A DNA stretch of 64,000 bases from Candidatus Aenigmatarchaeota archaeon (GTDB lineage Archaea > Aenigmatarchaeota > Aenigmatarchaeia > CG10238-14), in contig JAGVVZ010000002.1 of the NCBI GenBank assembly GCA_018304545.1, positions 16,999-80,998 of the forward strand, written 5' to 3'. Made by a program: the position numbers and the translations under genes. Each line of letters begins with the position of its first letter. Position 1 is the stretch's first letter. The notes beneath the pieces are model-generated. The model was not told where the DNA came from, ran no database searches, and was given only the letters and a program-made list of their open reading frames with translations. Shown piece after piece: positions 28,500 through 57,613 of this stretch.

Positions 28500-29641
28500 T
28501 CTTCACCAATTTTAGCTACTAATTCAAACATTCCTGTACCTACTGGTATTTGTTTATTTATCATAACATTATCAAATATACCTTCAAATGTGTCGATTTC
28601 TCCTCTAACTGATGCCTTTACTAAATGTTTTACGGTTTCTTCAAAACCCGCACGAGTTAAAACTGACGTGTGAGTTCCAGCAATTCCATATCTACCAACA
28701 GCTCTAATTTCACCTGTTAATGTCATTATATCAGCAACAAGCATAATGTGTCTTTGATCTATATCAAGACCTTGTTGTTCTAGTGTATCTCTAATTTCTC
28801 TCATCAAAGCTGTTCTTGCGGCCTCAATGCCAAGAAATTTAGCTATTTCATGAATATTATTCGTATAACATTTTCTGATATCAAATTCTTCCATTAGCAA
28901 TATTTTTTCAAAATTCGAGCCTAATGTTTTTATTATCCAATCTTTCCCTTCTTTTACAAGAACCGAATTTTTAATACCCTGTAAACCTGAAACATGAAGT
29001 GCCAAGATTTTCTTTTTCAATTTCTCTAATTCTTTTATTGTTATTTCTCCTTCTTTTGGTTCTATATCTATTCTTTCTCCATTTAATTTTATTGTGTAAT
29101 TTTTGAATGTTTTTTCCAATTTTTCCATCGTTTCTTTTTTTTCTGATTGTTTTATCTTCTTCAACTCAATTTTTATTTTTTTATTTGTCAAATCAACAGA
29201 AATCGTATTGGAAAAATTTCTCATTTTCTTTTCTCTTAATTGCTTTGCGATTTCTTCACCGTCTTCCTTTGTATTAAATTTAGATTTTAGATACAAAGTC
29301 ATCATGGGTGTAGTTGGTTCCTTTCTAGCATCAAAAATTTCAATTAATCTCGGTAAACCCAAAGTAATCTGTAAACCTGCAGATCCAGCAAAGTGATATG
29401 TTCTCATTGTCATTTGAGTCGCTGGTTCAGAAATAGACTGAGCGGAAATTATACCTAAAGCTTCGCCCGGCTCAAAACTGCTTTTCATATATTCTTTTTT
29501 AACAGAATTAATTAATTTTTCTTTTTGTTGTTCGTTAAGTTTTCTATCTTTACTAACCTTGTCTATCTCTTCCCATATCAACTGAGGCAAATCAACATTA
29601 TCTAAATAACTCATTTGCAATTCTTTCGACATTGATTCCAC
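28496..29641 (-). CDS. rpoA2: DNA-directed RNA polymerase subunit A''
   Basis: 381 aa, C-terminal portion of the largest subunit (..FEPGEALGIISAQSISEPATQMTMRTYHFAG..). Start overlaps the end of the upstream ORF; the true start may be one of the downstream ATGs. Confidence 0.9.
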   Translation of the reverse strand: MESMSKELQMSYLDNVDLPQLIWEEIDKVSKDRKLNEQQKEKLINSVKKEYMKSSFEPGEALGIISAQSISEPATQMTMRTYHFAGSAGLQITLGLPRLIEIFDARKEPTTPMMTLYLKSKFNTKEDGEEIAKQLREKKMRNFSNTISVDLTNKKIKIELKKIKQSEKKETMEKLEKTFKNYTIKLNGERIDIEPKEGEITIKELEKLKKKILALHVSGLQGIKNSVLVKEGKDWIIKTLGSNFEKILLMEEFDIRKCYTNNIHEIAKFLGIEAARTALMREIRDTLEQQGLDIDQRHIMLVADIMTLTGEIRAVGRYGIAGTHTSVLTRAGFEETVKHLVKASVRGEIDTFEGIFDNVMINKQIPVGTGMFELVAKIGEE

Positions 29642-32600
29642 CTCTTTGCATTTTTGATGGGTCTAACCCATCTTCACCTGGTATGAATTGAATTATTTTC
29701 TTTGTACAATCTCTAACAGTACCATCATATTCAACCTTTAAATCTTTTAGTGCACCTATGAGCCTTCTTTCCAAATAACCACTATGTCTAGTTTTCAATG
29801 ACTTATCCATTAAACCTTCTCTACTATTCATTGCATCAAAGAAAAATTCAAATGGTGATAGACCGTTTTTATATCCGTGCCTTACGAACCCTTTCGATTC
29901 TAAGCTTAAATCACCTTTTCTGAAATGAGAAAATGTTCTTTTATAATATCCTATTTTAATTCTTTCACCTTTAACAGTTTCTTGACCAATACAAGCAGCA
30001 CACTGAACTAAATTAATAATACTGCCTTTTGATCCACTTTTAGCCATTATTATAGTAGAATTTTCAGGAACTGATTTTCCGACAACTTCACTAATTTCGT
30101 TCAACAATTCAGCCGTTCTTTTCTTGATTGAAATTTCTAAGCTCTCTCTCGGCGTTCTTCCTATAACATCTAGTATTTTATTCTTTTTAAAATCTTGGAT
30201 TGTTTTATCAACCTCTTTTTGAACATCTTCAATCATTTGATTAATTTTCTCTCTTATTTTAGGATTTAAATCATGATCCGCGATAGATACGGTAAACCCA
30301 TATTTCATTAAAACCTCGAGAGATAATCTAGTTATATCGAATAAAAATTTCCTTGTAACTTCATATCCGTATCTTCTTTCTAATTCGTCTAATATTTTAC
30401 CCTTAAACGCACCTATCCCATTTTCATCAATAATACCAGACAAAAGTTTACCATTTTTTATAACAACATCCATATCCGCAACTTTGTATTCTAAATTGAA
30501 GTTTTTCGGCAAAAATAAACTGAAAATTTCTTTCCCAGTTAATTCTTTTTTATCTGGTATTTCAACATCTAAATCATATGCTCTAATTAAATTAACAGCA
30601 TCTTCCCTGTTCAACACGAACTTGTTTGTTAGGATAAAAATACCTGTTATGTGATCGTTTATTGCGCCTATAATAGGACCACTAAATCTTGGACTTCTAA
30701 TTTGTGTTATTGAATTAGTTAATAATTTAGTTTCTGTTTGTGCTTCTTTTGTTTGCGGCACATGCAAATTCATTTCATCTCCATCAAAATCAGCATTATA
30801 TGACGGAGCTACGACCAAATTAAATCTAAACGTATTATAGGGCATCACTCTCATTTTATGACCCATCATACTCATTCTATGCAATGATGGTTGTCTATTA
30901 AATACTGACCAATCTCCATCTTCGATTTGCTTTTCCACAATAAAACCTGATGCCAATTCATCAGCTATATCTTTCTTATTTAACTCTGTCACCTTTTTCC
31001 TTCTACCATCAGGCCTATTAACATAATTTATTGTGGGCCACTCCGGACATCTCGTTATCAATTCTTTTATTTTTTTGATGTTCCTTTCATTTACTACAAC
31101 AGGCAACGTTAATTCCTCTGCCACAAATCTCGGTATGCCAACTTCATTAATATCAAGCATCGGATCAGGACTTATGACGGTTCTTGCTGAATAATTAACC
31201 CTTTTACCAATTAAATTGCTTCTGAATCTTCCTTCCTTTGTTTTTAATCTCTGTGCCAAAGTTTTTAATATTCTACCAGATCTGTGTCTCGCTGGAGGAA
31301 CTCCAGAAATCTCATTATTCATGTATGTTGCTATATGATATTGTAATAACTCCCAAAGATCTTGAATAATAAAATCTGGTGCGCCTAAATCACTGTTTTC
31401 TCTTAATCTTTTGTTTATTCTAACTATATCGACCAATTTGTGTGTTAGATCATCTTCAGACCTTTCACCTGTTTCTAAAGTAATAGAAGATCTAACAGTT
31501 ACAGGAGGCACAGGCAGCAATGATATTATCAAATATTCGGGCCTTGTTCCCCTTATACCTAAATATAATAAATCCTCGTTTGGTATTCTTTCTAACCATT
31601 CTCTCGTTTCAACAGGGGTTAATAATGTGCTATCCTCTTGGAAGCTTGTTGGTTTGACAAATTTAATTTTCTTTTGTTTTTCTTTACAATGGGGACACGT
31701 GCTTTTGACTAAATGTTTAAGTTTTTTAACTGATATTCTTCCTGTTGCTTTGTTTTTCTCCGTATCTTCCTTTGTTATAAGTATTTTTCCACATTTTCTA
31801 CATGTAGATTTTAATATATTGTAAATAAGTTTCGAATAATTTACATGAACAATAGGCTTAGTCAATTCCAAATAACCGAAGTGGCCCTTGCAATCACCGA
31901 CAGTTCCACCGCAAGATCTACATCTTAATCCTGGATCAATAACACCTAATCTGGGATCCATAAGTCCTCCTTCTACAGGATATCCTTCCTGATCATATAA
32001 TTCTGTTTTGCTAATTTTACATTGAGAAATTTTCTTCACTAAATCTGGGTTTAAAACGCTAAATAAAATTTTATCTATTGTGTTCATTTCTTCATTCACA
32101 GTTATTTTAGGATATATTAGCATACTTCTTAATTCGTCCAAAAGAAGTTTGAAGGCATAAGACATTTCGACATCGATGATTTTGGTTCCTCCGCAAACAG
32201 AGCAATACTTTTTGTTTTTTATTCTATCATAAATTGCGTCCATACCACAGTCTTTGCATATCGGTATATAGGTTTTATCGGAATCAAATCTCTCTTTTAA
32301 TAATAACGATGCACCATGCGCTATTAAACAATCTTTTTCCATTTCGCCTAACCTAAGACCGCCCATTTTTGATTTTCCTTCTGTAGGTTGTTTTGTTAGC
32401 AAAGTAACAGGACCTTTCGATCTTGCGTAAATTTTATTTGAAACTAGGTGATCGAGTTTCTGATAATAAATATTCCCGATATAGATTTTGTTGTCAAACT
32501 GTTTTCCTGTTCTTCCGTCAAACATCACTTCTGTGCCATCATTATTGAAGTTATACGATTCCAATTTTTTCCTTAGTTCAGATTCAGGAATTGAATGGAA

Positions 32601-33881
32601 TGCGGGACTGCTAATTCTTTCTCCTTGTAAAGAAGCGACTTTCCCACTTAAAATTTCCAAAAGTTGTCCTATTGTCATTCTAGATGGTATACCATGAGGA
32701 TTAAAAATAATATCAGGAACAACGCCATCTTCAGTAAACGGTAAATCTTCTTGCGGAACAGTTAAGCCTATTACACCTTTTTGACCATGTCTACTGGCAA
32801 ATTTATCTCCTAGTTCAGGTTTTTTCAAATCTCTAATTAATGACTTAACTAATTTATTTCCTTCTCCGCTTTCTGTTATGAATACTCTATCTACTATACC
32901 TTCTTCTCCGTGTCTTATTTTGATAGAGGTTTCTCGAATATTTTCAAGTCCAGTAATAAATTGATCTAATCCTCCCAGAAATCTTAAAGGCGAAACTTTA
33001 GAAATAATTATATCTTCAGATTTCAAAGAAGTTTCTGGATTGGCGATGCCGTCTTCAGATAAGTGTTTATATGAATCCTCGCCTATATATCCCCTAACTC
33101 CTGGTTCAGGTATACCTATCACGTCTTCTTGACCGCCAAGATATCGTTTTTCTTCTGCTTCGTAGGCTCTAAACAAATATGACCAGAACATTCCCCTTTC
33201 TATAGACGATTTATTAATTACTATCGAATCCTCCATATTATATCCCATAAATGGCATAACAGCTAAAGTAACATTTTGACCACCGGGATGATTTTCATCA
33301 CTGACAATTTCATTCATATGAGTTTTAACCAGAGGAACCTGTGGATAAACAAGAATATTTGATTTAGTATCAGTTCTAATCGGAAAATTCAAAGAGTATA
33401 AACCTATGGATTGCCCTATCATTTTTCCTCCAAAATTTACTCTATCACCTCGATCGAACTCAGCAAAAGGAACTAAAGACGTGGCTAAACCCAAAATTAT
33501 TGTAGGATCCAATTCTAGATGAGTATGTTCTGGTGTCAAATCTTCCGGTCTTAAAGCAACATATGCGTTTTCTTCTTCTTCTGTATCAAGATATTCAATT
33601 ACACCACTGTTTATCAAATCTGACCATTTCATTTTTCCTTTTTGAACATTTTCCACGTGTTCTTTAGTTAATTTGGGCTTGCCGTCTTCGACTACTATGA
33701 CAGGCCTTCTTGCACGACCAGCATCAGTAAGAACAGTTACAACATCTAAATGATCCAAATAAACAACATTTACTTGATTCGATAATTGACCTTTTCTTCT
33801 CATTTCTCTTATTGAATTCACTAATTTTTCAGGTGATTTCAAGTTGCCGATGTATCTCCCATCTACAAATAAATCTGTCAT
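29598..33881 (-). CDS. rpoB1-rpoA1: Single 1427-aa ORF encoding RNA polymerase subunit B' (residues ~1-597) fused in frame to subunit A' (from Met ~599)
   Basis: B' C-terminus ..CSVCGGTKIIDVEMSYAFKLLLDELRSMLIYPKITVNEE runs directly into the A' N-terminus MNTIDKILFSVLNPDLVKK...LMDPRLGVIDPGLRCRSCGG. The Met codon is at 32087-32085 (minus strand). There is no stop codon between the two. Confidence 0.8.
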   Translation of the reverse strand: MTDLFVDGRYIGNLKSPEKLVNSIREMRRKGQLSNQVNVVYLDHLDVVTVLTDAGRARRPVIVVEDGKPKLTKEHVENVQKGKMKWSDLINSGVIEYLDTEEEENAYVALRPEDLTPEHTHLELDPTIILGLATSLVPFAEFDRGDRVNFGGKMIGQSIGLYSLNFPIRTDTKSNILVYPQVPLVKTHMNEIVSDENHPGGQNVTLAVMPFMGYNMEDSIVINKSSIERGMFWSYLFRAYEAEEKRYLGGQEDVIGIPEPGVRGYIGEDSYKHLSEDGIANPETSLKSEDIIISKVSPLRFLGGLDQFITGLENIRETSIKIRHGEEGIVDRVFITESGEGNKLVKSLIRDLKKPELGDKFASRHGQKGVIGLTVPQEDLPFTEDGVVPDIIFNPHGIPSRMTIGQLLEILSGKVASLQGERISSPAFHSIPESELRKKLESYNFNNDGTEVMFDGRTGKQFDNKIYIGNIYYQKLDHLVSNKIYARSKGPVTLLTKQPTEGKSKMGGLRLGEMEKDCLIAHGASLLLKERFDSDKTYIPICKDCGMDAIYDRIKNKKYCSVCGGTKIIDVEMSYAFKLLLDELRSMLIYPKITVNEEMNTIDKILFSVLNPDLVKKISQCKISKTELYDQEGYPVEGGLMDPRLGVIDPGLRCRSCGGTVGDCKGHFGYLELTKPIVHVNYSKLIYNILKSTCRKCGKILITKEDTEKNKATGRISVKKLKHLVKSTCPHCKEKQKKIKFVKPTSFQEDSTLLTPVETREWLERIPNEDLLYLGIRGTRPEYLIISLLPVPPVTVRSSITLETGERSEDDLTHKLVDIVRINKRLRENSDLGAPDFIIQDLWELLQYHIATYMNNEISGVPPARHRSGRILKTLAQRLKTKEGRFRSNLIGKRVNYSARTVISPDPMLDINEVGIPRFVAEELTLPVVVNERNIKKIKELITRCPEWPTINYVNRPDGRRKKVTELNKKDIADELASGFIVEKQIEDGDWSVFNRQPSLHRMSMMGHKMRVMPYNTFRFNLVVAPSYNADFDGDEMNLHVPQTKEAQTETKLLTNSITQIRSPRFSGPIIGAINDHITGIFILTNKFVLNREDAVNLIRAYDLDVEIPDKKELTGKEIFSLFLPKNFNLEYKVADMDVVIKNGKLLSGIIDENGIGAFKGKILDELERRYGYEVTRKFLFDITRLSLEVLMKYGFTVSIADHDLNPKIREKINQMIEDVQKEVDKTIQDFKKNKILDVIGRTPRESLEISIKKRTAELLNEISEVVGKSVPENSTIIMAKSGSKGSIINLVQCAACIGQETVKGERIKIGYYKRTFSHFRKGDLSLESKGFVRHGYKNGLSPFEFFFDAMNSREGLMDKSLKTRHSGYLERRLIGALKDLKVEYDGTVRDCTKKIIQFIPGEDGLDPSKMQRGGINVERIANELFR

Positions 33882-35630: not shown

Positions 35631-35734
35631 CGCCCTGGTCGGGATTTGAACCCGAGTCCTAGGAGTGACAGTCCTAGATTCTACAACATCATGAAATAAT
35701 AATGTTTTGATAGGCCAGGCTACACCACCAGGGC
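35631..35734 (-). tRNA. tRNA-Asp(GTC) with a ~30-nt insertion between D-arm and anticodon stem (non-canonical intron; exact boundaries unresolved)
   Basis: Minus-strand read: GCCCTGG-TG-GTGTAGCCTGGCCTATCA-[aaaacattattatttcatgatgttgtagaatc]-TAGGA-CTGTCAC-TCCTA-GGAC-TCGGG-TTCAAAT-CCCGA-CCAGGGC-G. Good acceptor, anticodon arm (GUC) and T-arm. Confidence 0.6.
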
Positions 35735-35820
35735 TCACTAAGTAAGTAAATAGAAAATTAGAATGTGAAGGAACTGAGTTGGGGGTAGCTTTAATCAATA
35801 AATGGTCACCATTATGATAT

Positions 35821-35938
35821 GAGTTGGCAACGTCCTGAACTTCCCACCCAAAGGCAGTACAACTCAGATCACCGAAAAACTTAACTTCCGTGTTCGAAAT
35901 GGGAACGGGTGTTTCCTTTTCGTTTTGGTCGCCAACTC
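35821..35938 (-). rRNA. rrf: 5S ribosomal RNA (standalone, not linked to 16S/23S in this window)
   Basis: Minus-strand sequence GAGTTGGCGACC...CACCCGTTCCCATTTCGAACACGGAAGTTAAG...GTTGCCAACTC. It carries the universally conserved 5S loop-C/helix-III block and complementary termini (helix I). Confidence 0.85.
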
Positions 35939-36057
35939 AATAAATATATTTCTATCTCTATTTATGTGTTCAAATATTCACAGAAATAGCTCTCAAGATT
36001 TAAATAGTTTACTGTTTTATGGCTCTGTAAATCCCTGTTTTTAAAACAGATATTAAA

Positions 36058-36173
36058 TCCCCCCGGCCGGAGTTGAACCAGCAACATCACGGTATCTATT
36101 GAGCCCATGCTGGTGACAAACACATAATGTGCTCGTCTACAGCCGTGCGCTCTGCCAGTTGAGCTACAGGGGG
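36058..36173 (-). tRNA. tRNA-Tyr(GTA) with a ~43-nt canonical (37/38) intron
   Basis: CCCCCTG-TA-GCTC-AACTGGCA-GAGC-G-CACGG-CTGTAG[intron acgagcac...caatagat]A-CCGTG-ATGTT-GCTGG-TTCAACT-CCGGC-CGGGGGG-A; acceptor has one G-U pair. Confidence 0.8.
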
Positions 36174-36208
36174 TCAATATAGAAATATTAGGATGGTTAT
36201 ACTTTAAA

Positions 36209-37627
36209 TTAGTTCTTATTTTTATTAACTGGAACGATTCTAGAAGCAATTTTCCCTATTATACCGCCCTTACCTTCGTAAGTCATATGAACTTTTGGCA
36301 GTTTAAATCCACCTAAAATTTCCATTAATGGAATTATATTATAAGTTAAAACGACTTCTTCATAGGGTTTTATTTTATCTATATGCCATGTCAGTCTCGT
36401 CCCTTTTGTTGTCATCTTTATATCAGGTGTTAAAGTATCGAATCTTTTAACGACTTTAGCAACAGATGGAACTAAATCTCTTATAACAATATCTCTTATT
36501 TCTAAAGGAGATTTATTTTTGACGTGTAAAGATATCGTAACCTCCTTTCCGTGAGACAGTGGTGTTATATGTTTTTTATGGACTGTTGGTCTAAAGAATA
36601 TATGATATAAAATAAACATGAAAAACACAAGAATCAATGTGCCTATTATCGCATTTTGAAATCTAAGCTGGTATATAATTACTCTAGACTGATTTGGATC
36701 TAAATTTGAAATTCTCCATTCATAGATTACTCTATTATCTTTTATAGTTTCTGAACTTGGTTCTAATTCTGGATAAAAGAAATATTTCATAATAACTGGT
36801 ATGGATTCTGTAATAGTGTATTCCGAATCTGGTATATTCCCGTTGTTAGTCAACGTTATTGATACTACAATAAAAGTTATATTATAATCGATTTTTTTAG
36901 ATTTCACAAAATTTGTTTTTTCGTTCACTCTAAAGGTTGTCTCTTTATCATCTAAAACATTATTAAGTATGTCTTTGAGTTCAACTAGAATTTTAAACTC
37001 GCCATAACCATAGGGATTTAGTATTTGCAAATCATTTGTTATTGTTTTTGTACTATCTGGATCTATCCTAACTTGATCCTCAAATTTGTCAATTAATAAA
37101 TTGTTTTTAAAAATTTTTGTCGTAACTAAAACGTCTTTATATTTAACTTCATTAAGGTTTGTTATTACTGGTTGTATTATTAAAGTTTCTTCTGTATTCA
37201 AAACTTGCGAATTTGTTTTCAACTCTGATAAATATACTTCATATTCCCTCTTAAAGTTGAAGAGAAAATCCTTTGAATTAGATTTAGAAGTAGCGACAGA
37301 AGTGGCAGAAAACGTATAAAGAAACACTCCTTTTTGTGTATTTCTGGGGGGGTCCAATACGACTAAAAATTCTCCTATTTCGCCTGGCCCAAGCGTTACC
37401 GAATATTTATCAATTGACGTCCACTGATTTGGCCAAACCGAAACATAAAACGTATCTAAATTTTCCGCAGTATTCTTAATGGTCAGTTTAACGTTATTTT
37501 TCTGTCCCATATATATAGTGTAGATACTTTCGGGGCCACCTATTTCTATATCAGCATATACAAAATTTAGGATAAACATATAAGCAAACAAAATTCCTAA
37601 GAAATATTTTGTATTCAATATTACCAC
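36209..37627 (-). CDS. Signal-peptide-bearing surface protein with C-terminal TM anchor, hypothetical
   Basis: 472 aa: N-terminal signal peptide, long beta-rich extracellular region, TM helix (..IGTLILVFFMFILYHIFF..), ~120-aa cytoplasmic tail. Confidence 0.35.
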   Translation of the reverse strand: MVILNTKYFLGILFAYMFILNFVYADIEIGGPESIYTIYMGQKNNVKLTIKNTAENLDTFYVSVWPNQWTSIDKYSVTLGPGEIGEFLVVLDPPRNTQKGVFLYTFSATSVATSKSNSKDFLFNFKREYEVYLSELKTNSQVLNTEETLIIQPVITNLNEVKYKDVLVTTKIFKNNLLIDKFEDQVRIDPDSTKTITNDLQILNPYGYGEFKILVELKDILNNVLDDKETTFRVNEKTNFVKSKKIDYNITFIVVSITLTNNGNIPDSEYTITESIPVIMKYFFYPELEPSSETIKDNRVIYEWRISNLDPNQSRVIIYQLRFQNAIIGTLILVFFMFILYHIFFRPTVHKKHITPLSHGKEVTISLHVKNKSPLEIRDIVIRDLVPSVAKVVKRFDTLTPDIKMTTKGTRLTWHIDKIKPYEEVVLTYNIIPLMEILGGFKLPKVHMTYEGKGGIIGKIASRIVPVNKNKN

Positions 37628-37658
37628 TATAAATATTTGGTTTTTATATATTAAATTT

Positions 37659-38375
37659 CTATTTTGCTAAATTCTTGATAAATTTCACGACTTTTTTTGA
37701 AATTGGTTCAGGCGTTGTTTCTTTTTTTTGAGGTTTTTGTTCTATTTTATTTTTTATACTTTGTTCAGTATCTTTTACATACTCATATAAAGATTTGAAA
37801 TTAAACCTACTTTGTTTCCCATATTTTTTGAACCAAGACCATTCTCTTCTACAAAGTTCTTCCCAAGTTATATTCTCTAAAGGTATTATATTGGGTCTTT
37901 GGACATTCTCTGAAGGATATGGAAAGCCGAGTGTTATTATGCCGACTGGTGTGAGAGACGGTGGTATATCTAAAAGTGTCTTAATTTTGTCATCCTCAAA
38001 AGCATGAACCCATGATGCACCTAAACCCAAAGCATGAACTGTTAATAACATGTTCTGAATACAGGCTGCCGTATCTTGTATTGCATATAAAATCTTGCCC
38101 CTTTCTCCAAATTTTGTTGTGATTCTATCTATATTGGCGCAAACCACAATTAACACAGGCGCTTCTTCAACATGTCTTTGTTTCAGGGAAGCTTCTGAAA
38201 TTTCTTTTTTCATTTTTTTATCTCTAACTATAATAAATTCCCATGGCTGAATATCACCAGTTGAACATGCATAAGTACCGCCCATTATAATATGCGCAAT
38301 CAATTCTTCAGGAACGTCTTTTTTATCATAATTTTTAATCGTAGTTCTAGATTCTATTATCTCAAAAACATCCAT
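37659..38375 (-). CDS. Nitroreductase-family FMN-dependent oxidoreductase
   Basis: ..IESRTTIKNY.., ..PWEFIIV.., ..LLTVHALGLGASWV.. nitroreductase fold signatures; Lys-rich C-terminal tail. Confidence 0.65.
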   Translation of the reverse strand: MDVFEIIESRTTIKNYDKKDVPEELIAHIIMGGTYACSTGDIQPWEFIIVRDKKMKKEISEASLKQRHVEEAPVLIVVCANIDRITTKFGERGKILYAIQDTAACIQNMLLTVHALGLGASWVHAFEDDKIKTLLDIPPSLTPVGIITLGFPYPSENVQRPNIIPLENITWEELCRREWSWFKKYGKQSRFNFKSLYEYVKDTEQSIKNKIEQKPQKKETTPEPISKKVVKFIKNLAK

Positions 38376-38429
38376 ATTATCTCTATTCTTTTTAGTAATT
38401 TAATCTATTAAAAGACTAAGTAAAAAATA

Positions 38430-40157
38430 TTGAATATGAAATACTCTATTCTCTGTGACAGTTACGAAGTTCTAGAATCAATACCATCAAAATTATCAAA
38501 GGCTGATATATTAGCAAAACTTTTTTCAGAGACACATTCAAATGAGTTGCCAAAAATAGTATTGCTAGCACAGGGAATGGTTTTTCCTAAATTTTCAGGA
38601 AACGAACCGGGTGTGGCAATTCAGATTATGATGAAAGCTATTTCTAAAACAACTGGATTTACACAACAAGAAGTAGAAAACAAATTTAAAAAAACAGGTG
38701 ATCTTGGACTTACTGTTGAACAATTTATAAAGAATAGAAAACAATCTACCCTCTCGAAAAAGATGTTGACAATAGACAACATATTCAATAATATACAACA
38801 ATTGTCGTTCATGAGTGGTCATGGATCTCAAGACAGGAAATTAAATCTAATAGCTGAACTTTTAGTTTCTGCGTCTCCCAAAGAAGCAAAATATATTGTA
38901 AGAACTATACTAGAAGAGTTGAGAGTGGGCGTCGGTGAAGGAATAATAAGGGATGCTATAGTAAAGGCGTTTTTAGTTTCTGAAAATACGACAAAAGAAG
39001 AAAAAAATGAAATAACAAAGATCGTGGAGAATGCTTGGTGTATATTTTCCGATTTCGGACAAGTTGCTAAGATAGCAAAGGAGGATGGTATTCAAGGATT
39101 AAAACGGGTTAAAATACAAATAGGGAACCCTGTACAGGTTATGCTAGGTGAAAAGGCAGAATCGATAAAAGAGGTTTTTGATAAATTCGAAAAATTAACA
39201 GTTGAATTTAAGTATGATGGGATGAGAGCGCAAATTCATAAGAAAAATAAAGACATATGGATTTTTACAAGAAGATTAGAAAACGTTACTAAACAATTTC
39301 CAGATCTTGTTGAATTATGCAAAAGGAGTTTGATGGTTGATGAATGTATAATTGAAGGAGAGGTGTTAGGTATCGACCCTAAAACCAAACTTCCTTTAAC
39401 CTTTCAAAAATTATCGCAAAGAATACATAGAAAATATTATATCGAACAAATTTCAGAAAAAATCCCCATACAAATGAATGTTTTTGATGTATTATACGTG
39501 GATGGAAAGATGATATTAGACAAAGAATTCAAAGAAAGAAGAAATATCCTGAAAGGCATAATTAAAGAAATTCCTGACAAATTTAAAATTGCTTCCCAGA
39601 TAATTACAAACGACATAAAAGAAGCAGAAATTTTTTATAAAAAGTCTCTAAAAGAAGGCCAAGAAGGCGTGTTTTTGAAAGTTCCTAGTTCAAAATACGT
39701 TTTTGGAAGACGTGTAGATGGTTGGTATAAAATAAAACCAAATGTAGAAACACTCGATCTCGTGATAATTGGAGCGACTTGGGGGACAGGAAAAAGAGTC
39801 GGTGTTATAGGATCATATATTCTTGGATGTAGGGATGAAGAAACAGGTGATTTTTTAGAATGCGGGATGTTGGGTAGTGGGGTAAAAGAGAAGGAAAATG
39901 AAAAGGAACATACTACATTAAAAGACCTAACAAAATTATTAAAACCTTATATAGTGTCTGATAGAGGTGTTGAAATTAAAATAAAACCAAAAATAATAAT
40001 TTCAGTTGACTATCAAGAAATACAAAAATCATCTAACTATAAATCTGGATTTGCCCTAAGATTTCCTAGATTTGTATCATTGAGAAATGACAAAGGATTA
40101 AATGATGTAGATACATTAGACAGAATAAATAAACTTTACCGGGTTCAAAAAAAATAA
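38430..40157 (+). CDS. lig: ATP-dependent DNA ligase
   Basis: 575 aa; adenylation motif EFKYDGMRAQIH (KxDGxR), plus motifs III-VI and an OB domain. Confidence 0.9.
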   Translation: MNMKYSILCDSYEVLESIPSKLSKADILAKLFSETHSNELPKIVLLAQGMVFPKFSGNEPGVAIQIMMKAISKTTGFTQQEVENKFKKTGDLGLTVEQFIKNRKQSTLSKKMLTIDNIFNNIQQLSFMSGHGSQDRKLNLIAELLVSASPKEAKYIVRTILEELRVGVGEGIIRDAIVKAFLVSENTTKEEKNEITKIVENAWCIFSDFGQVAKIAKEDGIQGLKRVKIQIGNPVQVMLGEKAESIKEVFDKFEKLTVEFKYDGMRAQIHKKNKDIWIFTRRLENVTKQFPDLVELCKRSLMVDECIIEGEVLGIDPKTKLPLTFQKLSQRIHRKYYIEQISEKIPIQMNVFDVLYVDGKMILDKEFKERRNILKGIIKEIPDKFKIASQIITNDIKEAEIFYKKSLKEGQEGVFLKVPSSKYVFGRRVDGWYKIKPNVETLDLVIIGATWGTGKRVGVIGSYILGCRDEETGDFLECGMLGSGVKEKENEKEHTTLKDLTKLLKPYIVSDRGVEIKIKPKIIISVDYQEIQKSSNYKSGFALRFPRFVSLRNDKGLNDVDTLDRINKLYRVQKK

Positions 40158-40278
40158 ATAACAGATTAAAGATAAAAAATGTGGTTATAGAATAGAAATA
40201 ATTTTTTCTAAAAATGTATAACTAAAAATATTAATACTCAACTTCACTATAAAGTAATACAAGGGGGGGTTATTTTAA

Positions 40279-41106
40279 ATGGTAGGATCTGCTCAATTAA
40301 TGGACTCTTTACGTGGTATTGGATTAAATTTGTATGAAAGAAAATTATGGGTAAGTTTACTAGCCAAAGGTGTGGCAACAGCGGGAGAATTATCATCTAT
40401 TGCACATGTTCCAAGATCCAGAACCTATGATGTTCTTCAAACATTAGCTGATAAAGGTTTTGCAATTGTACAAACATCCAAGCCGTTGAAATACGTAGCC
40501 GTTCCACCTTCTGAAGCTTTAGAAAAAGCCAAACAAAGGCTGAAAGAAGATTTGGAAACAAAGGCTGAAAGAATTGAAAGGTTAAAAGGTTCCAAACTTT
40601 TAGATGAATTAGACAGTATCCATAAGCAGGGAATGGAAATGGTATCACCTGAAGATATGACAGGATCATTAAAAGGCAGATATTCCGCAATTCAACAATT
40701 AGATTTTATGTTTAAAGGTGCAGAAAATTCCGTAAATATAATAACCACTGCATCTGGGCTCAACGAATTATTTGAAAATCATTTAAGTGTTATAAAAGGA
40801 CTGAAACAAAGGGGTGTAAAAATAAGAATAGCGACAAAAATAAATGATGGTTGCGCTGATGCTGTAAAAGCTCTTTCTTCCCTAGCAGATATTAGAAAAA
40901 TATCTGAAAAGGATTTACCGATACATGGAAAATTTGCGGTTGTCGATGGACAACAAATGATTTTTGGTTTATCTGATCCGGACGATATGCAATCACAACA
41001 TATGATGTTTTGGACAAAATCTCAACATGCATCTAAAAATCTTGCAAATCCTTTGTTTGATTTAGTATGGGAGAAATCTGCTTCTGTAAACTCGAATAAA
41101 AAATAA
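40279..41106 (+). CDS. TrmB-family transcriptional regulator
   Basis: N-terminal wHTH ..YERKLWVSLLAKGVATAGELSSIAHVPRSRTYDVLQTLADKGF.. and a C-terminal sensing domain; 275 aa. Confidence 0.6.
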   Translation: MVGSAQLMDSLRGIGLNLYERKLWVSLLAKGVATAGELSSIAHVPRSRTYDVLQTLADKGFAIVQTSKPLKYVAVPPSEALEKAKQRLKEDLETKAERIERLKGSKLLDELDSIHKQGMEMVSPEDMTGSLKGRYSAIQQLDFMFKGAENSVNIITTASGLNELFENHLSVIKGLKQRGVKIRIATKINDGCADAVKALSSLADIRKISEKDLPIHGKFAVVDGQQMIFGLSDPDDMQSQHMMFWTKSQHASKNLANPLFDLVWEKSASVNSNKK

Positions 41107-41111
41107 TATTT

Positions 41112-42977
41112 TCATATAAATATTGGTCTCTGAGATAATTTTTTTGGTAAAGATAAAGATTTTAATGGTTTGTCCTTCATTTCGTTTTTAATCAACTTTA
41201 CCAAATCGTCCATCTTCATTTTAGTTTCTTTGCTTTTTTCTTTTCTTATTCTAACATTAAATTCTTTACTTTCTTTTTCTCTCTTTCCAATTACTAAAAT
41301 AAATGGAATCCACTCCATTTCAGAATTTCTAATTTTTTTATCTATACTTTCAACTCTGTCATCAATATCAACTCTAATATTATTCAATTCTAACTCCTTA
41401 GCGATTTCCTCACAATATCCAATAAAGTCGCTATTTATTGGGCATAATCTTACCTGTATAGGAGACAACCAAACGGGTAATTCTGGGTTATTACCTTTTT
41501 TAGATTCCAAATATGCTTTCTCCAAAATAGCGTAGAACACTCTTTCTAAACTCCCTGATGGAGAACAGTGTAAAACCAAAGGGTATTTTGATTTACCATC
41601 TTCATCAGTATATTTCATATTAAATCTTTCTCCGTTTTCATGATCTATTTGAACCGTTGAAAGAGCTGAAGCTTTGTCCATAGAATCCACAAAATTAAAT
41701 TCAAATTTGGGATCAAAATATGCATATCTAAAGTTCCACATTTCAATTAATACAGGTTTATTAACAAGTTCGACTAGATTGATAACAAAGTTTTTGTTTT
41801 CTTTCCAAAAATCTTTAGTGAATCTAATAGCAACTTCAAAATCATCCACGCTCAAACCAAGATCATTCAAGGCCTCTATAGATAATTTATATTGATTTGT
41901 ATATTCTTTCTTTGCTTGTTCCAAATCTTTACATAGGGTATGCATATCAGGCATCGTAAATGCCCTCAATCTTCTTAATCCGACTAACTCTCCTGCCTTT
42001 TCTAATCTGAATGAATATCTAGTTAATTCATAAATTTTCATTGGTAGGTCTTTGTATGATATCTGAGATGCCGCTGCAGTTAAAAATTGACCAAAACAAG
42101 CGCTGAATCTAAGGAAGAATTTTTTCTTTGCTGATTCTACTGTATATTGTCTTGCGGGGAATCTATTCAAATAACTTTTTAGTGCTGGATGATCATAATC
42201 ATACATTATAGGTGTTTCTACTTCCATCCCGCCATAATTGATTATTTTTTGTGTTACCCACATTTCCAACAAACTTTTCATTAATCTGCCTTTAGGTAAA
42301 AATCTAAAATTACCAGGATCACTGCCTGGTTCATAATCTACTAATTGTAAAGCTTTCATCAATTTTACATGTGCGGGAACTTCAGAAACAGCTCTTACTT
42401 TGGCATATTCGTAATTGAAAAATTTCTCAAGATTTTTGTGTTTCTTAAAATCAAATTTCTTCGCATCTACCAAACTACCGTCCGGCTTTAATATAAACCA
42501 TTCTGAAATGACTTTTTCTTCTTGTTTTAATGCCTGCGAAACTTCTCCGTCATCCTCTCTAACACTGTCAGAAGAAAATACTTTAAACTGTTCTGCCATG
42601 GGGTGTGCTTTAATTTTAATTGAAAATTGTTTATTCCAACCAAATGGTGATCTATATGTCTCGATACCGATTTCTTTCATGAAAATTTCCATTTTTTTGA
42701 GTAAATCCAAAGCATCGGAAGGCTTAGCCAAATTACTACTTAAATGAGCATAAGGATGAATCAAAACTTTATTAACTTTTAGATTATCCAAACTTGATTT
42801 TATTTCTTTTATTGCAGATTTAATAATTTTTTCATTATCATCTTTTTCTATAGAAACGAACAACACAGCTAAATCATCAAATTTTACTTTCTTTTTTTCC
42901 GCATTCTCGGCTATTGAGATTTCCTTTTCTATCGGTTCATACTCAAAATAATCTGCGTGGTGTTGTATTACTCTCAT
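41112..42977 (-). CDS. thrS: Threonyl-tRNA synthetase (archaeal type with N-terminal editing domain)
   Basis: Class II motif 2 FRLEKAGELVGLRRLRAFTMPDMHTLC (R-x-E...GL-R-R-FT..D-H), 621 aa, C-terminal anticodon-binding domain. Confidence 0.75.
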   Translation of the reverse strand: MRVIQHHADYFEYEPIEKEISIAENAEKKKVKFDDLAVLFVSIEKDDNEKIIKSAIKEIKSSLDNLKVNKVLIHPYAHLSSNLAKPSDALDLLKKMEIFMKEIGIETYRSPFGWNKQFSIKIKAHPMAEQFKVFSSDSVREDDGEVSQALKQEEKVISEWFILKPDGSLVDAKKFDFKKHKNLEKFFNYEYAKVRAVSEVPAHVKLMKALQLVDYEPGSDPGNFRFLPKGRLMKSLLEMWVTQKIINYGGMEVETPIMYDYDHPALKSYLNRFPARQYTVESAKKKFFLRFSACFGQFLTAAASQISYKDLPMKIYELTRYSFRLEKAGELVGLRRLRAFTMPDMHTLCKDLEQAKKEYTNQYKLSIEALNDLGLSVDDFEVAIRFTKDFWKENKNFVINLVELVNKPVLIEMWNFRYAYFDPKFEFNFVDSMDKASALSTVQIDHENGERFNMKYTDEDGKSKYPLVLHCSPSGSLERVFYAILEKAYLESKKGNNPELPVWLSPIQVRLCPINSDFIGYCEEIAKELELNNIRVDIDDRVESIDKKIRNSEMEWIPFILVIGKREKESKEFNVRIRKEKSKETKMKMDDLVKLIKNEMKDKPLKSLSLPKKLSQRPIFI

Positions 42978-43033
42978 ATAATTACCTCATTAATCTTTGA
43001 CCTATATATTTAAATTTCATACTAAATGTCGTA

Positions 43034-43246
43034 TCAATATCTTATGGGTTCAGCTTCTTCTAATCCATATCCATAACTTTCTCTAAACTGACGTTTTACC
43101 GCCATATCTGGATGTATGGGATGATATTTAGCAATAGCTCTTTTGGCCAGTTTTTTAGCTTCTATCAATCCTAGTACATAAACAAGTTTACTCGTGATTT
43201 CCAAACTTGGCACTGGATCTGGCCAACCACAATCTGTTTCTGTCAA
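43034..43246 (-). CDS. Hypothetical 70-aa protein (TTG start); see 43243..43515
   Basis: MTETDCGWPDPVPSLEITSKLVYVLGLIEAKKLAKRAIAKYHP...; no recognisable family. Confidence 0.25.
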   Translation of the reverse strand: MTETDCGWPDPVPSLEITSKLVYVLGLIEAKKLAKRAIAKYHPIHPDMAVKRQFRESYGYGLEEAEPIRY

Positions 43247-43515
43247 AATATCATCTTTTCAAGTAAGTTTGGTCTACCTCTATCTTTTTCAGAAACAGAT
43301 AATTGAATGTTACTAAATTCTAAAAAACCAAATCCACCAGAATTTCTCCTAAAGGCAGATTTAGAGCATGAAATTTTTTTAATGTTGGGACATTTCAACA
43401 AAACTTTTTCTATTAATTTTTTATTTAAGAATTTTCTAAAATGAACTATTTTTATATTAGGTGAAAGTTTTTCTAAATCTGAATAACTAGAAATAGAGAC
43501 TTGTTTGGCGTTCAC
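43243..43515 (-). CDS. Hypothetical 90-aa protein; possibly the upstream half of a frameshifted/split gene together with 43034..43246
   Basis: Ends ..LLEKMIF-TGA. The next ORF begins with TTG one nucleotide into that stop codon (TTT TGA CAG vs T TTG ACA G), i.e. in the -1 frame. Confidence 0.25.
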   Translation of the reverse strand: MNAKQVSISSYSDLEKLSPNIKIVHFRKFLNKKLIEKVLLKCPNIKKISCSKSAFRRNSGGFGFLEFSNIQLSVSEKDRGRPNLLEKMIF

Positions 43516-43600
43516 CCTGTCCGATTTTCACCAGTCATCACAACCACTTACCTGAGTAATTATAGGTTTAACCTTATAAAATTTTCTAAATGTCACGAAT

Positions 43601-44098
43601 TTAGAATATATACCCGAACCAGAACCATGAAATGGCTGCTATGCTACCAAAAGCTATAACTAGCGTATTCATTAAATCTGACAAATCTTCCTTCTTTGAA
43701 GAAATGTGCAAACCTACGCCATATAATGAAAGCCAAACCCATTGATATATAAAAAACGATACTATACCATTTTGCAAATTGTATTTAGAAGAAAAAGTAA
43801 CCGCTTCAATGACTGAGATAAAAAATCCTGTTAAAGCAACCAGAATATGAACATGTTTATTATCTATACGAGTGAATTTACCTATTATTACCGCAAATTC
43901 TAAAAAAATCATAAAAAAGGCAAAGGCTATGTTATCTGGGTTCCACGCATAAATAAGCGTCGCCATGACTATCGGCAGAAGTAAAAAAAGTGCCGTTATT
44001 ATGTGAATAAAGTTATTCTCCAAATCAAATATTTGCATATAATACACTTTTAAACAATATTCATCAAACAATATTATAAAAATTTGAATAAAAAACAA
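43601..44098 (-). CDS. Integral membrane protein (4-5 TM), hypothetical
   Basis: 165-aa hydrophobic ORF. Confidence 0.3.
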   Translation of the reverse strand: MFFIQIFIILFDEYCLKVYYMQIFDLENNFIHIITALFLLLPIVMATLIYAWNPDNIAFAFFMIFLEFAVIIGKFTRIDNKHVHILVALTGFFISVIEAVTFSSKYNLQNGIVSFFIYQWVWLSLYGVGLHISSKKEDLSDLMNTLVIAFGSIAAISWFWFGYIF

Positions 44099-44440
44099 AC
44101 TATAATATTATTTAGTGATTTAATGAAAAATATACAAATAGTTGGTTTTGAAGAGATAGATCTACATACAATAAGCATAATAAAACAAAAGATTTGGGAT
44201 TTAGTTAATAGACATGAGAAAATTTTCGGTGAAAATAGGATTACCGATTTTAAGCTTGTTGCAAACAAGATAAGAAAAAGAGAGCACCCAGATTATGAAA
44301 TAAGTGCACATCTTGATACTCCATTAGGTCATTTTAGAACCTCTAAGTCTGGATGGAAAGTTTTAGATGTAACTGAAAACGTACTAGAAGAATTAGAAAG
44401 ATTAGTAATTGAAAAAAAAGATAAAATTAAGCAATTTTAA
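44084..44440 (+). CDS. Hypothetical soluble protein
   Basis: 118-aa charged ORF with no recognised motif. Confidence 0.25.
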   Translation: MNKKQTIILFSDLMKNIQIVGFEEIDLHTISIIKQKIWDLVNRHEKIFGENRITDFKLVANKIRKREHPDYEISAHLDTPLGHFRTSKSGWKVLDVTENVLEELERLVIEKKDKIKQF

Positions 44441-44495
44441 TAGATGCATAGTCCATGAATGTATAATAAATAAATTAAACTACAGCTAAATATAA

Positions 44496-44585
44496 AGCCC
44501 GGTAGTGTAGCGGTCAAGCACACTCTTTTGAGGCTTAAAGTGGGCTTTGGACCCATTAACTCAGGTTCGAATCCTGACCGGGCTA
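44496..44585 (+). tRNA. tRNA-Gln(TTG) with a ~17-nt insertion between position 26 and the anticodon stem (non-canonical intron)
   Basis: AGCCCGG-TA-GTGT-AGCGGTCAA-GCAC-A-[ctcttttgaggcttaaa]-GTGGG-CTTTGGA-CCCAT-TAAC-TCAGG-TTCGAAT-CCTGA-CCGGGCT-A. Confidence 0.65.
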
Positions 44586-44596
44586 TTGGTGATTTT

Positions 44597-45274
44597 TTGG
44601 AGCCAATTCTTGAAAAGAAAAAATTACAAGATATATATAATATCATTGCAGATTCATGGACAAATCTCAGATCAAAACCAAAAGATTTTATTGTGGAAAT
44701 TAGCAAAAAAATTAACGGCAATAATATACTAGATCTTGGTTGCGGTAACTGTAGTGGTATGATACCATTTTTAGAAAGAAAAATGATGTGTGTTGGATTA
44801 GATTATTCTAAAAGTATGATAAGAGAAGCAAAAAAATTATTAGACAGAAAAAAAGTGAGAGGTTACTTAACCATAGGTGACGTGATAAATCTTCCATTTA
44901 AGAATTCAACGTTTGATGTTGTTTTGTACATAGCCGCATTTCATCATATACCAACAAGAAAGCTGCGCCTGATTTCTTTAGAAGAAATAAAAAGAACCAC
45001 TCCAATCAAATGCAACGTTTATATCGCGGTTTGGAACAGAATGCAATTTAAATTTGTGCTAAAGCTTTTCATTTCGCTATTTAAGAAAAAATATGAATTT
45101 GGTGATATATTTCAACCATGGAATTATCACGGGAAAACCTTTAAGAGATTTTATCACTTATATACAAAACACGAGTTAGAAACGGATATAGAAACAGCTG
45201 GATTCAAAATAAATAAAATCGATGTTGGAAAAGGCTATAATAGGAGAAATATATTCATGGAAGTGTCAAAATGA
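44597..45274 (+). CDS. Class I SAM-dependent methyltransferase (start inferred as TTG just after the tRNA)
   Basis: Motif I ..ILDLGCGNCSG.. and post-I acidic motif ..CVGLDYS... The tracked ORF start (44528) lies inside tRNA-Gln. Confidence 0.6.
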   Translation: MEPILEKKKLQDIYNIIADSWTNLRSKPKDFIVEISKKINGNNILDLGCGNCSGMIPFLERKMMCVGLDYSKSMIREAKKLLDRKKVRGYLTIGDVINLPFKNSTFDVVLYIAAFHHIPTRKLRLISLEEIKRTTPIKCNVYIAVWNRMQFKFVLKLFISLFKKKYEFGDIFQPWNYHGKTFKRFYHLYTKHELETDIETAGFKINKIDVGKGYNRRNIFMEVSK

Positions 45275-46209
45275 GTAAATGCTCGAGTTGTAAGAACGAA
45301 TCTGTGTATTTTAGAACCAACGAAGGTAGGCATTATTGTAAAGTATGTTTCAGTAAAAATATAGAAAAAAAAGTGAGACTTACAATATCTAAAAACAATC
45401 TTATTAAAAATGGGGATAAAATAGTTGTTGCGTTTTCTGGAGGTAAAGATTCTGGAAATTTACTATATTTACTTCATAAAATCTTCAAAGATAATCCTAA
45501 TGTTAAGATTGTAGGAATGACAATAGATGAGGGTATTAAAGGATATAGGAATATCACTATAGACAAATGCGCTGATTTCTGTAAGAAATTGGACGTGGAA
45601 CATCATATTTTTACTTATAAAGAGTATTTCCATACAACCATCGATAACCTTGCCAAAGACAATGATGATAGTATGTGTGGTTTTTGTGGAATTTTTAGGA
45701 GATATTTGCTTAATGAGGGAGCAAGGAGATTAGATGCAACTAAATTAGCTACAGGACACAATTTAGATGACGAAACTCAAAGCATATTAATGAATGTTTT
45801 AAAGGGGGATCTTATGAGATTCGCCAGAATAGGTCCGATACCAAAAATAAAGAGGCACATAAAATTTGTTCAAAGAATCAAACCTTTGATAAGTATTCCT
45901 GAAAGAGAGTCTGCTTTGTATGCTATGCTTAATAGCATTCCTGCCTATTTTACTGAATGCCCATATGCACAAAGAAATGCACTCAGGATGGAAACAAGAG
46001 ATTTTCTTAATAAAATGGAGGAAAGATCACCCGGTATAAAATATAGTATAATATCCAGTGCCCAAAGAGTTGCTCCTTTTATAGAAGCAAGTTTTAAAAA
46101 ATCAAATATTAAGGAGTGTGAAACTTGTGGCGAACCAACTTCCGGAAATATATGCATAGTATGTCAAACTATGAAAAAAGTAAACATAAAGCTCTCAAAA
46201 TCTTCCTAA
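45271..46209 (+). CDS. PP-loop ATPase of the TtuA/Ncs6 family (tRNA thiolation) with N- and C-terminal CxxC zinc fingers
   Basis: N-terminal C-x2-C...C-x2-C, PP-loop ..VVAFSGGKDSGNLLYLL.., C-terminal ..CETCGEPTSGNICIVCQ..; 312 aa. Confidence 0.7.
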   Translation: MSKCSSCKNESVYFRTNEGRHYCKVCFSKNIEKKVRLTISKNNLIKNGDKIVVAFSGGKDSGNLLYLLHKIFKDNPNVKIVGMTIDEGIKGYRNITIDKCADFCKKLDVEHHIFTYKEYFHTTIDNLAKDNDDSMCGFCGIFRRYLLNEGARRLDATKLATGHNLDDETQSILMNVLKGDLMRFARIGPIPKIKRHIKFVQRIKPLISIPERESALYAMLNSIPAYFTECPYAQRNALRMETRDFLNKMEERSPGIKYSIISSAQRVAPFIEASFKKSNIKECETCGEPTSGNICIVCQTMKKVNIKLSKSS

Positions 46210-54872: not shown

Positions 54873-54955
54873 GGGCTAGTAGATCAACGGTAGATCGCTT
54901 CCTCGGCATTATAACGAATTGGAAGAGGCTTGGGGTTCAAATCCCCACTGGTCCA
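54873..54955 (+). tRNA. tRNA, probably Ala (G3:U70, A73; candidate anticodon GGC) with an ~11-nt insertion in the anticodon arm; encoded CCA follows (54956-54958)
   Basis: GGGCTAG-TA-GATC-AACGGTA-GATC-G-CTTCC-[tcggcattataacgaatt]-GGAAG-AGGCT-TGGGG-TTCAAAT-CCCCA-CTGGTCC-A-CCA. No splice position yields the usual U33, so isotype and intron placement are uncertain. Confidence 0.55.
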
Positions 54956-57494: not shown

Positions 57495-57613
57495 GCGGGA
57501 GTTGCCAAGCCTGGTCAACGGCGCAGGACTGATTAACTCAGTGTGAGACTTAAGTTGACTATAGGATATCCTGTCCCTTAGTGGGTTCGCAGGTTCGAAT
57601 CCTGCCTCCCGCA
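57495..57613 (+). tRNA. Type II (long variable arm) tRNA, Leu-like D-arm, with a ~33-nt insertion in the anticodon arm; anticodon not resolved
   Basis: GCGGGAG-TT-GCC-AAGCCTGGTCAAC-GGC-G-CAGGA-[ctgattaact...ataggata]-TCCTG-TCCCTTAGTGGGTTC-GCAGG-TTCGAAT-CCTGC-CTCCCGC-A. Simple exon joins give GAT/GAA/GGA loops with U37, so splice sites are probably non-canonical. Confidence 0.55.

Follow-up and report, generated by a model that had tools for sequence, protein, structure and literature searches.

Densely distributed, probable bulge-helix-bulge introns, canonical and non-canonical, in the tRNA genes of a Candidatus Aenigmatarchaeota genome

Examination of a 64 kb stretch of contig JAGVVZ010000002.1 from a Candidatus Aenigmatarchaeota archaeon (hereafter the window; coordinates without a locus label refer to it) reveals seven tRNA genes, every one of which is interrupted, with nine introns in total. 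Four of these lie at the canonical position 37/38 and the other five at distinct non-canonical positions, namely 24/25, 25/26, 27/28, 30/31 and 53/54. These inserts are very probably ordinary archaeal tRNA introns of the protein-spliced, bulge-helix-bulge type, which occur at unusual density in this DPANN genome. A first-pass annotation of the same DNA had described the region as intron-rich and had raised the question of whether the inserts have bulge-helix-bulge flanks, as expected of the type spliced by the archaeal endonuclease; within the window both points hold. The analysis covers this 64 kb and about 20 syntenic loci from relatives (given below by their L numbers), and statements about the genome as a whole are extrapolations from it.

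In archaeal tRNA introns the splice motif reportedly consists of a 4-bp helix between two 3-nt bulges, each of which is cut after its second base (Marck and Grosjean 2003; Xue et al. 2006). Each gene was scanned for this motif, the candidate introns were removed and the product was run through ARAGORN; a second procedure, independent of ARAGORN, solved for a strict cloverleaf and the motif together. The strict cloverleaf filter was used in place of a loose scan accepting any ARAGORN call, which gave many spurious solutions. Both procedures returned identical introns, the solver finding a single solution for six of the seven genes and ranking the one reported here first for tRNA-Asp, and in silico removal of the introns restored a canonical cloverleaf with a sensible anticodon in all seven genes by both ARAGORN and the strict cloverleaf test. 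The canonical 37/38 sites were reproduced, and the motif geometry can therefore be regarded as internally validated. All four pairs of the central helix form in eight of the nine introns.

The non-canonical introns interrupt four genes (arrows mark the predicted cuts in the bulges). The tRNA-Asp(GUC) gene (35631-35734, minus strand; 104 nt, 75 nt when spliced) contains a 29-nt intron (35679-35707, minus strand) at 24/25, within the 3' strand of the D stem; its spliced form is called as Asp(gtc) by ARAGORN and passes the strict cloverleaf test. The motif, with the central helix CUAU/GUAG, the bulges CA↓A and AA↓U and an 8-bp inner helix, is also the minimum-energy fold, which is a nearly complete helix-bulge-helix-bulge-helix with its 4-bp outer helix offset by one unpaired base. 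In tRNA-Gln(UUG) (44496-44585, plus strand; 90 nt, 73 nt when spliced to Gln(ttg); Rfam 44.4 bits) a 17-nt intron (44522-44538, plus strand) of the form A-CUC-UUUU-GAG-GCUU-AA occupies 25/26, where the helix AAGC/GCUU (four Watson-Crick pairs), the bulges AC↓A and AA↓A and a 3-bp inner hairpin constitute the sole solver solution. The 123-nt tRNA-Phe(GAA) gene (61871-61993, plus strand) becomes a 74-nt Phe(gaa) upon removal of two introns. The first (61899-61916, plus strand; 18 nt at 27/28; A-UAC-AUAAA-GUA-GCUC-AA, bulges AC↓A and AA↓A) forms the helix GAGC/GCUC, the intron strand of which is a copy of the 5' strand of the D stem and pairs with the 3' strand of that stem. The second (61943-61973, plus strand; 31 nt at 53/54) sits in the T arm at the junction of T stem and T loop, with the helix CGCU/GGCG, bulges GG↓A and AA↓U, a 6-bp inner helix AGAUAA/UUAUCU and a local fold at z = -2.4. 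Finally, tRNA-Leu(UAA) (57495-57613, plus strand; Rfam 40.8 bits; spliced to an 86-nt Leu(taa)) has a unique two-intron solution, with 20 nt at 30/31 (57528-57547, plus strand; CGCA/UGUG, bulges GG↓A and AG↓A) and 13 nt at 37/38 (57555-57567, plus strand; CUUA/UAGG, bulges AG↓U and AU↓A).

The anticodon-loop introns that the first-pass annotation had seen in tRNA-Tyr and tRNA-Leu(CAG) are both placed at the canonical 37/38 by their motifs. In tRNA-Tyr(GUA) (36058-36173, minus strand; Rfam 49.1 bits; spliced to a 73-nt Tyr) the intron measures 43 nt (36094-36136, minus strand; CUGU/AUAG, bulges AG↓A and AU↓A) and in tRNA-Leu(CAG) (57659-57757, plus strand; Rfam 43.6 bits; spliced to an 86-nt Leu(cag)) 13 nt (57699-57711, plus strand; UUCA/UGGA, bulges GG↓A and AG↓G). 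The remaining canonical intron is an 11-nt element (54909-54919, plus strand) in tRNA-Ala(GGC) (54873-54955, plus strand; Rfam 52.3 bits). No split or permuted tRNA genes were found, all seven genes being contiguous and colinear with intronless orthologues.

The minimum-energy local fold contains the motif in all five non-canonical introns. Furthermore, when each intron was shuffled, with five registers allowed and a score combining the central helix with the quality of the flanking helices, the fraction of shuffles matching the observed motif was between 0.0001 and 0.055 for eight of the nine: 0.0001 for Asp (3 of 20000), Phe intron 1 (1 of 20000) and Phe intron 2, 0.001 for the Leu(UAA) intron at 30/31, 0.019 for Gln, 0.020 for Leu(CAG), 0.030 for Tyr and 0.055 for the Leu(UAA) intron at 37/38. 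A strict bulge-helix-bulge has both an outer and an inner helix. The anticodon stem serves as the outer helix of the canonical introns; the non-canonical ones are relaxed motifs, since their exon-exon outer helix is missing or incomplete.

Comparison with relatives bears directly on the nature of the inserts. The window has a G+C content of 29-34% and carries archaeal information-processing genes, including a split rpoB with rpoA, EF-2, EF-1alpha, ribosomal proteins, a ThrRS with an archaeal editing domain, GluRS and the CCA-adding enzyme. Its S15 matches a protein bearing the name 'Candidatus Aenigmarchaeota archaeon' at 100% identity, and its ThrRS is 98%, 89%, 71% and 61% identical to those of L001, L002, L003 and L004, which are contigs of uncultured archaea and of Candidatus Aenigmatarchaeota metagenome-assembled genomes (MAGs). 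Judged by these genes, the source of the window is a DPANN archaeon of the phylum Aenigmatarchaeota. The relatives share the synteny around the genes for ThrRS and 5S rRNA and around the ribosomal protein cluster.

Intronless orthologues of 73-74 nt are colinear with the window genes and leave gaps exactly at the predicted introns, so the extra bases are not absorbed into a longer D-loop or variable arm, as the first-pass annotation had considered as an alternative. The tRNA-Phe genes of L010, L016, L017, L018 and L021 are intronless and 74 nt long, and alignment of the L010 gene with that of the window shows two gaps, precisely 18 nt and 31 nt in length, where the introns are predicted, with boundaries that the motif rule reproduces. 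L014, which belongs to the same MAG as L002, has both Phe introns at the same sites with drifted sequence and pairing kept, and L019 has a single 16-nt intron at 30/31. For tRNA-Asp, L001 is identical to the window, in L002 the 24/25 intron is retained with two substitutions, neither of which disturbs the inner helix, L003 combines a 17-nt intron at 21/22 with a 13-nt canonical one, and L004 is intronless. The tRNA-Gln gene is intronless in L004 and has an 18-nt intron at 15/16 in L003; in L001, the ThrRS of which is 98% identical to that of the window, tRNA-Gln(UUG) has a different body with introns at 10/11 and 21/22 (the solver failed on this gene, which was resolved by hand, and ARAGORN calls the spliced product as Gln). 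Both tRNA-Leu genes are identical in L007, which comes from an independent metagenome. Where the introns of L002 and L014 have changed, the bases still pair (A:U to G:U, U:G to C:G). Together these alignments indicate that the inserts are real insertions relative to a standard tRNA, maintained as structured elements.

The corresponding enzyme is encoded close by. About 700 bp downstream of tRNA-Phe lies the gene for the tRNA-splicing endonuclease EndA (62681-63229, plus strand; likely ATG at 62687; 182 aa; Pfam: tRNA_int_endo_N and tRNA_int_endo), which matches the homotetrameric EndA of M. jannaschii (1A79) over its full length with an E-value of 1.7e-29. Its catalytic Tyr and His are separated by a segment with a 6-residue basic insert (VKLKRGPK; RVYERGVKLKRGPKAPHEH), where the M. 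jannaschii enzyme has a 6-residue gap. The segment RGVKLKRGPK aligns without gaps to GVIPKKGKRS of the catalytic subunit from N. equitans (loop VIPKKGKRS), the specific loop of which comprises residues 90-98 with K93, K94, K96 and R97 (Hirata et al., PMC3488258). The basic loop RGVK(L/I)K(R/K)GPK and the catalytic Tyr and His are invariant in eight Aenigmatarchaeota EndA orthologues, some of them from genomes with few introns; orthologues of the window gene lie at L010 9490-10017, L014 7292-7834, L016 5525-6061, L017 6415-6951, L018 13261-13788, L019 5627-6169 and L021 5457-5999.

In light of these observations, we propose that in the pre-tRNA the four intron bases that lie two before the 3' splice site would pair with the four exon bases that lie two before the 5' splice site, giving a 4-bp helix flanked by two 3-nt bulges, on which the small intron hairpin would usually stack. 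In the Asp intron, the Gln intron and Phe intron 1 the exon strand would be the end of the D-loop or the 3' strand of the D stem; this would explain why these introns adjoin the D stem, and in the precursor they would thus compete with the D-stem 5' strand. EndA would cut both bulges 3' of their second base, leaving the exons to be joined by an RtcB-type ligase, with the cutting of relaxed motifs presumably relying on the basic loop common to this EndA and the N. equitans enzyme. With this locus, a further phylum joins the evidence that connects the Nanoarchaeum-type EndA loop to non-canonical introns, and biochemical tests should be easy to set up because enzyme and substrates lie within a few kilobases of each other.

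Several observations weigh against this interpretation. All eight Aenigmatarchaeota EndAs have Ala (RAK) or Thr (RTE) in place of the Lys that completes the catalytic triad in the conserved R-K motif, and this Lys is kept in all five solved homologues aligned (from M. jannaschii, A. fulgidus, M. kandleri, N. equitans and ARMAN-2); either another residue, such as a lysine of the loop, might take its place, or a second subunit might be encoded elsewhere. The RtcB ligase was not found among the scanned open reading frames (ORFs) of the window, which lie outside 13.8-21.8 kb. As for the motifs, those of Gln, Phe intron 1 and Phe intron 2 have an outer helix of 0-1 bp, the fold of Leu(UAA) intron 1 has none, and the local folds of Gln and Leu(UAA) intron 1 are no more stable than those of shuffles (z = 0.26 and 0.17). 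The central helix of the Ala intron has only three of four pairs, which 16% of its shuffles equal. The motifs, the restored cloverleaves, the orthologue gaps and the endA gene are direct observations, and excision of the introns in vivo is what we infer.

Regarding the origin of the introns, the non-canonical ones of the window and its relatives have a common build, A-hairpin-4 nt-AA, with A as the first base in 12 of 12 and AA as the last two bases in 10 of these (p about 3e-12). In all of the about 24 introns examined, canonical ones included, the 3' bulge starts with A, which agrees with the report that the first bulge adenine flips out (PMC5829648). Such uniformity of build and termini is what one might expect had a single intron family moved from one tRNA gene to another by transposition (a mode of spread proposed for the Thermoproteales), a scenario that is compatible with splicing; moreover, the Gln intron of the window and the Asp intron of L003 have the 8-mer TTGAGGCT in common (uncorrected p = 0.007). 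We nevertheless consider this scenario improbable. A common insert sequence or mobile-intron ancestry, which the first-pass annotation had suggested looking for, did not emerge: when 17 introns were compared all-against-all (136 pairs), nothing exceeded chance, the best uncorrected p-values of 0.003-0.01 being at the level expected for so many pairs, in a comparison whose power is limited by the shortness of the introns. The only plausible homology is that between the orthologous Leu introns at 30/31. In addition, each intron has a 4-nt pairing segment made to fit its own host exon, and the requirements of the endonuclease could equally explain the uniform termini.

Local duplication is indicated instead by three features. 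Phe intron 1 (61899-61916) includes GTAGCTCA, which is identical to tRNA positions 7-14 (the identity beyond the segment GCUC is also given as GUAGCUCA), the Gln intron of L003 (within 8624-8714, minus strand) includes AGGATA, identical to the D-stem 3' strand plus position 26, and the Leu introns of relatives are tandem repeats. In the first two cases the identity exceeds the 4 nt needed for pairing and hence hints at duplication of the partner strand. It is thus possible that the junction introns of tRNA-Phe and the L003 Gln intron arose by local duplication of the D-stem partner strand.

The position of the D-arm introns also merits consideration, as the first-pass annotation had assigned the inserts of tRNA-Gln (17 nt), tRNA-Asp (about 30 nt) and tRNA-Phe intron 1 to one recurrent site near 26/27 and had taken it as diagnostic of the lineage. 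The isotypes and lengths stand (17, 29 and 18 nt); the common site does not, the motif registers being 25/26 for Gln, 24/25 for Asp and 27/28 for Phe. The repeated bases at the junctions allow only 25/26-26/27 for Gln, 23/24-24/25 for Asp and 27/28-28/29 for Phe, and as these share no position the three sites cannot coincide. It is accordingly very doubtful that a single preferred site, entered through site-specific insertion or homing, marks this lineage. In its favor, three of the five non-canonical window introns fall between junctions 24/25 and 27/28, those of Asp, Gln and Phe intron 1 have the same build, and of the 11 independent non-canonical events counted in the window and in its relatives, 7 fall in junctions 10-28 (p about 0.011, for orthologues that were hand-chosen). 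Yet randomly placed sites would bring three of five within 4 nt with p about 0.06, which is not significant and makes the clustering of window sites near the D stem suggestive at most. Introns of the Asp, Gln and Phe genes of relatives lie at 21/22, at 10/11 plus 21/22, at 15/16, at 30/31 or are absent, and no sequence is common to the introns. The intron positions cluster loosely in the D-arm region, with no fixed site.

Finally, the notion that the inserts are retained, in pseudogenes or in tRNAs with expanded D or anticodon regions, draws on the failure of ARAGORN and Rfam on these genes and is scarcely credible, given the intact exons and canonical cloverleaves with their identity features (G3:U70 in Ala; A73 and a long variable arm in Leu), the conserved synteny of genes that are the only copies seen, the intron helices that survive the substitutions seen in L002 and L014, and the EndA encoded in the window.

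The protein-spliced introns favored here are evolutionarily young and turn over quickly. Junction introns in tRNA-Asp and tRNA-Phe recur only in the closest relatives (L001, L002 and L014) and the 25/26 intron of tRNA-Gln only in the window, so that the sites are limited to a shallow clade comprising the window, L001 and the L002/L014 genome, are not diagnostic of the lineage and are improbable as markers of the phylum; in other Aenigmatarchaeota these genes are intronless or have introns at 10/11, 15/16, 21/22 or 30/31. Interrupted genes number 7/7 in the window, 3/3 in L001, 6/7 in L002 with L014, 3/4 in L016, 2/4 in L017, 2/4 in L019, 2/3 in L021 (including its unsolved Ala gene), 0/2 in L004 and 0/2 in L018, counts that come from the solver on a handful of loci rather than from a census; in this sample the window lineage is the most intron-rich. 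A tRNA-Phe gene was also looked for beside the glycosyltransferase gene in L008, and none was found. The tRNA-Gln gene, with introns at 25/26, at 10/11 plus 21/22, at 15/16 or none in close relatives, offers dated snapshots of intron gain, loss and shift, which are rare and bear on the origin of introns. Over 2-3 kb around the tRNA-Gln gene and two small ORFs, DNA identity between the window (43159-45277) and L001 (2931-5754) drops to 71-76%, against about 94% in the flanks, and the tRNA-Gln bodies and their introns are completely different, which suggests that recombination replaced the tRNA locus.

Intron density has consequences for annotation. On the raw window ARAGORN reported a single gene, that at 44496-44585, and miscalled it as Lys(ttt) instead of Gln. 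Rfam recovered the 5S rRNA and five tRNAs and missed Asp and Phe; of the Asp locus only the T arm appeared, as a weak tmRNA match, and Phe gave nothing even at E-values up to 5. The tRNA-Asp gene was found through a scan for an acceptor stem (7 bp) with a T arm, and tRNA-Phe through a search for G+C-rich islands. Rfam at permissive thresholds showed no further tRNAs in the rest of the window, and two leads from a T-loop consensus search, at 16872 and 53864, proved false, representing coding or AT-rich sequence. In this lineage, then, ARAGORN and Rfam miss or misname three of seven tRNA genes; tRNA counts and supposedly 'missing' tRNAs in Aenigmatarchaeota MAGs are therefore wrong unless intron-aware tools are used, an annotation problem already raised for DPANN genomes by Kaneta et al. 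(PMC5829648).

The gene at 54873 was also considered as Pro or Phe, and both were rejected, since G3:U70 and the anticodon GGC identify it as Ala. The anticodon loop of this spliced tRNA-Ala(GGC), UCGGCAU, has C at the near-universally U position 33, as it also does in L014 (15817-15899) and L015 (14144-14227); the orthologues in L016, L017, L019 and L021 have the loop UUGGCAU. In L021 the tRNA-Ala(GGC) gene (15487-15573, minus strand) is 87 nt long and has a 15-nt insert right after the anticodon loop (UUGGCAU, then AGCACUGGCACCGAA, then GGAAG), for which no standard splice motif was found. Two other candidates were noted in relatives. A 116-nt sequence present in L008 (4095-4210) and identically in L015 (4561-4676, plus strand) has a perfect 7-bp acceptor stem, a T arm, U as the discriminator and an internal CUGCAG loop; it yields no solver solution and may be a tRNA-Cys(GCA) with D-arm and anticodon-loop introns. 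In the more distant relative L006 (946-1086, plus strand) a 141-nt tRNA-Ser(CGA)-like gene has an anticodon-loop intron of ~55 nt with GAUGA-like box motifs.

Sister lineages show a different arrangement beside rpoD, a tRNA-Leu gene in which the two anticodon cassettes CUCAGA and CUUAAGA stand in tandem, each following the same 3' splice half-site AUGCGAR↓A. It occurs in L015 (16463-16594, identical to L008 15997-16128), L016 (13010-13136), L017 (13965-14091), L019 (12992-13122) and L021 (13021-13146), with the layout ...CGCAGG↓A-hairpin-AUGCGAR↓ACUCAGA(A)UGCGAR↓ACUUAAGAA...UGGGAA↓A; in the window, L014 and L020 there are instead two Leu genes, separate from each other. Either copy of UGCG can pair with the exon CGCA and either anticodon loop with the single downstream UGGG, so that a single gene, through alternative splicing by the endonuclease, could be the source of tRNA-Leu(CAG) as well as tRNA-Leu(UAA). 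In the motif and cloverleaf tests both products pass, and the cassette region is conserved like an exon, with an adjoining hairpin that varies with compensating changes. The cassette-derived Leu(CAG) would have A37, and the standalone Leu(CAG) genes have G37. The 30/31 intron of the window (57528-57547, AACUCAGUGUGAG) resembles a first cassette that has decayed. Tentatively, introns in this phylum might be used combinatorially and not merely tolerated, although we would not regard this as the likelier case. No description of alternative cis-splicing of an archaeal pre-tRNA was found in a literature search.

The window also contains a gene fusion, in which rpoB' (Rpb2 domains 4-7) continues in frame into rpoA' (Rpb1 domains 1-5) as a single 1427-aa ORF (29598-33881, minus strand), without a stop at the junction near 32090. 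The junction (…LIYPKITVNEEMNTIDK…) is also found in L001, in L003 and, up to the end of the locus, in L002; L004 has two genes in different frames.

In general terms, tRNA genes of this kind are already known from DPANN and TACK archaea (PMC5829648, PMC4090602, PMC4033280). Full-text literature searches found no paper describing tRNA introns in Aenigmarchaeota, a group outside the 46 species surveyed in PMC5829648. Non-canonical, multiple and relaxed-motif tRNA introns are documented in Thermoproteales, other TACK archaea, N. equitans, ARMAN-2 and several DPANN lineages (PMC4090602, PMC4033280, PMC5829648), and 25/26, 30/31 and 53/54 are already listed as non-canonical sites (PMC4090602). The Thermoproteales and other TACK archaea (Sugahara 2008; Fujishima 2010; PMC4033280, PMC4090602) resemble the window in their short bulge-helix-bulge introns at these three sites, in having up to several introns per gene, in relaxed motifs and in rapid gain and loss between relatives. 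They differ in that the host of the window is a mesophile-like DPANN archaeon of 30% G+C, the EndA of which is homotetrameric-like with a Nanoarchaeum-type rather than a crenarchaeal loop, and the intron sequence families of Thermoproteales have no detectable counterpart across isotypes here (17 introns, 136 pairs).

The closest parallels lie within the DPANN superphylum. Its members with a homotetramer-type EndA carrying the 'L3' loop have many disrupted tRNA genes (Kaneta et al. 2018, PMC5829648), and these archaea and N. equitans (Hirata et al. 2012, PMC3488258) have in common with the window lineage a basic insert adjoining the catalytic His, which is associated with non-canonical and multiple introns. 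ARMAN-2 (Micrarchaeota; PMC3239211, PMC3488258) is likewise an ultrasmall DPANN archaeon, with 56% of its tRNA genes interrupted and introns in the D and T arms; its EndA is a three-unit homodimeric enzyme with a specific loop of its own, whereas that of the window is a single 182-aa unit. The solved enzymes of both N. equitans and ARMAN-2 keep the catalytic Lys that is absent from the window EndA. Outside these groups, pre-tRNA-Glu of Methanopyrus kandleri (PMC5829648) similarly combines a relaxed D-arm intron with a canonical one, but its heterotetrameric EndA, which is devoid of a specific loop, cuts such introns poorly, and its genome has few of them.

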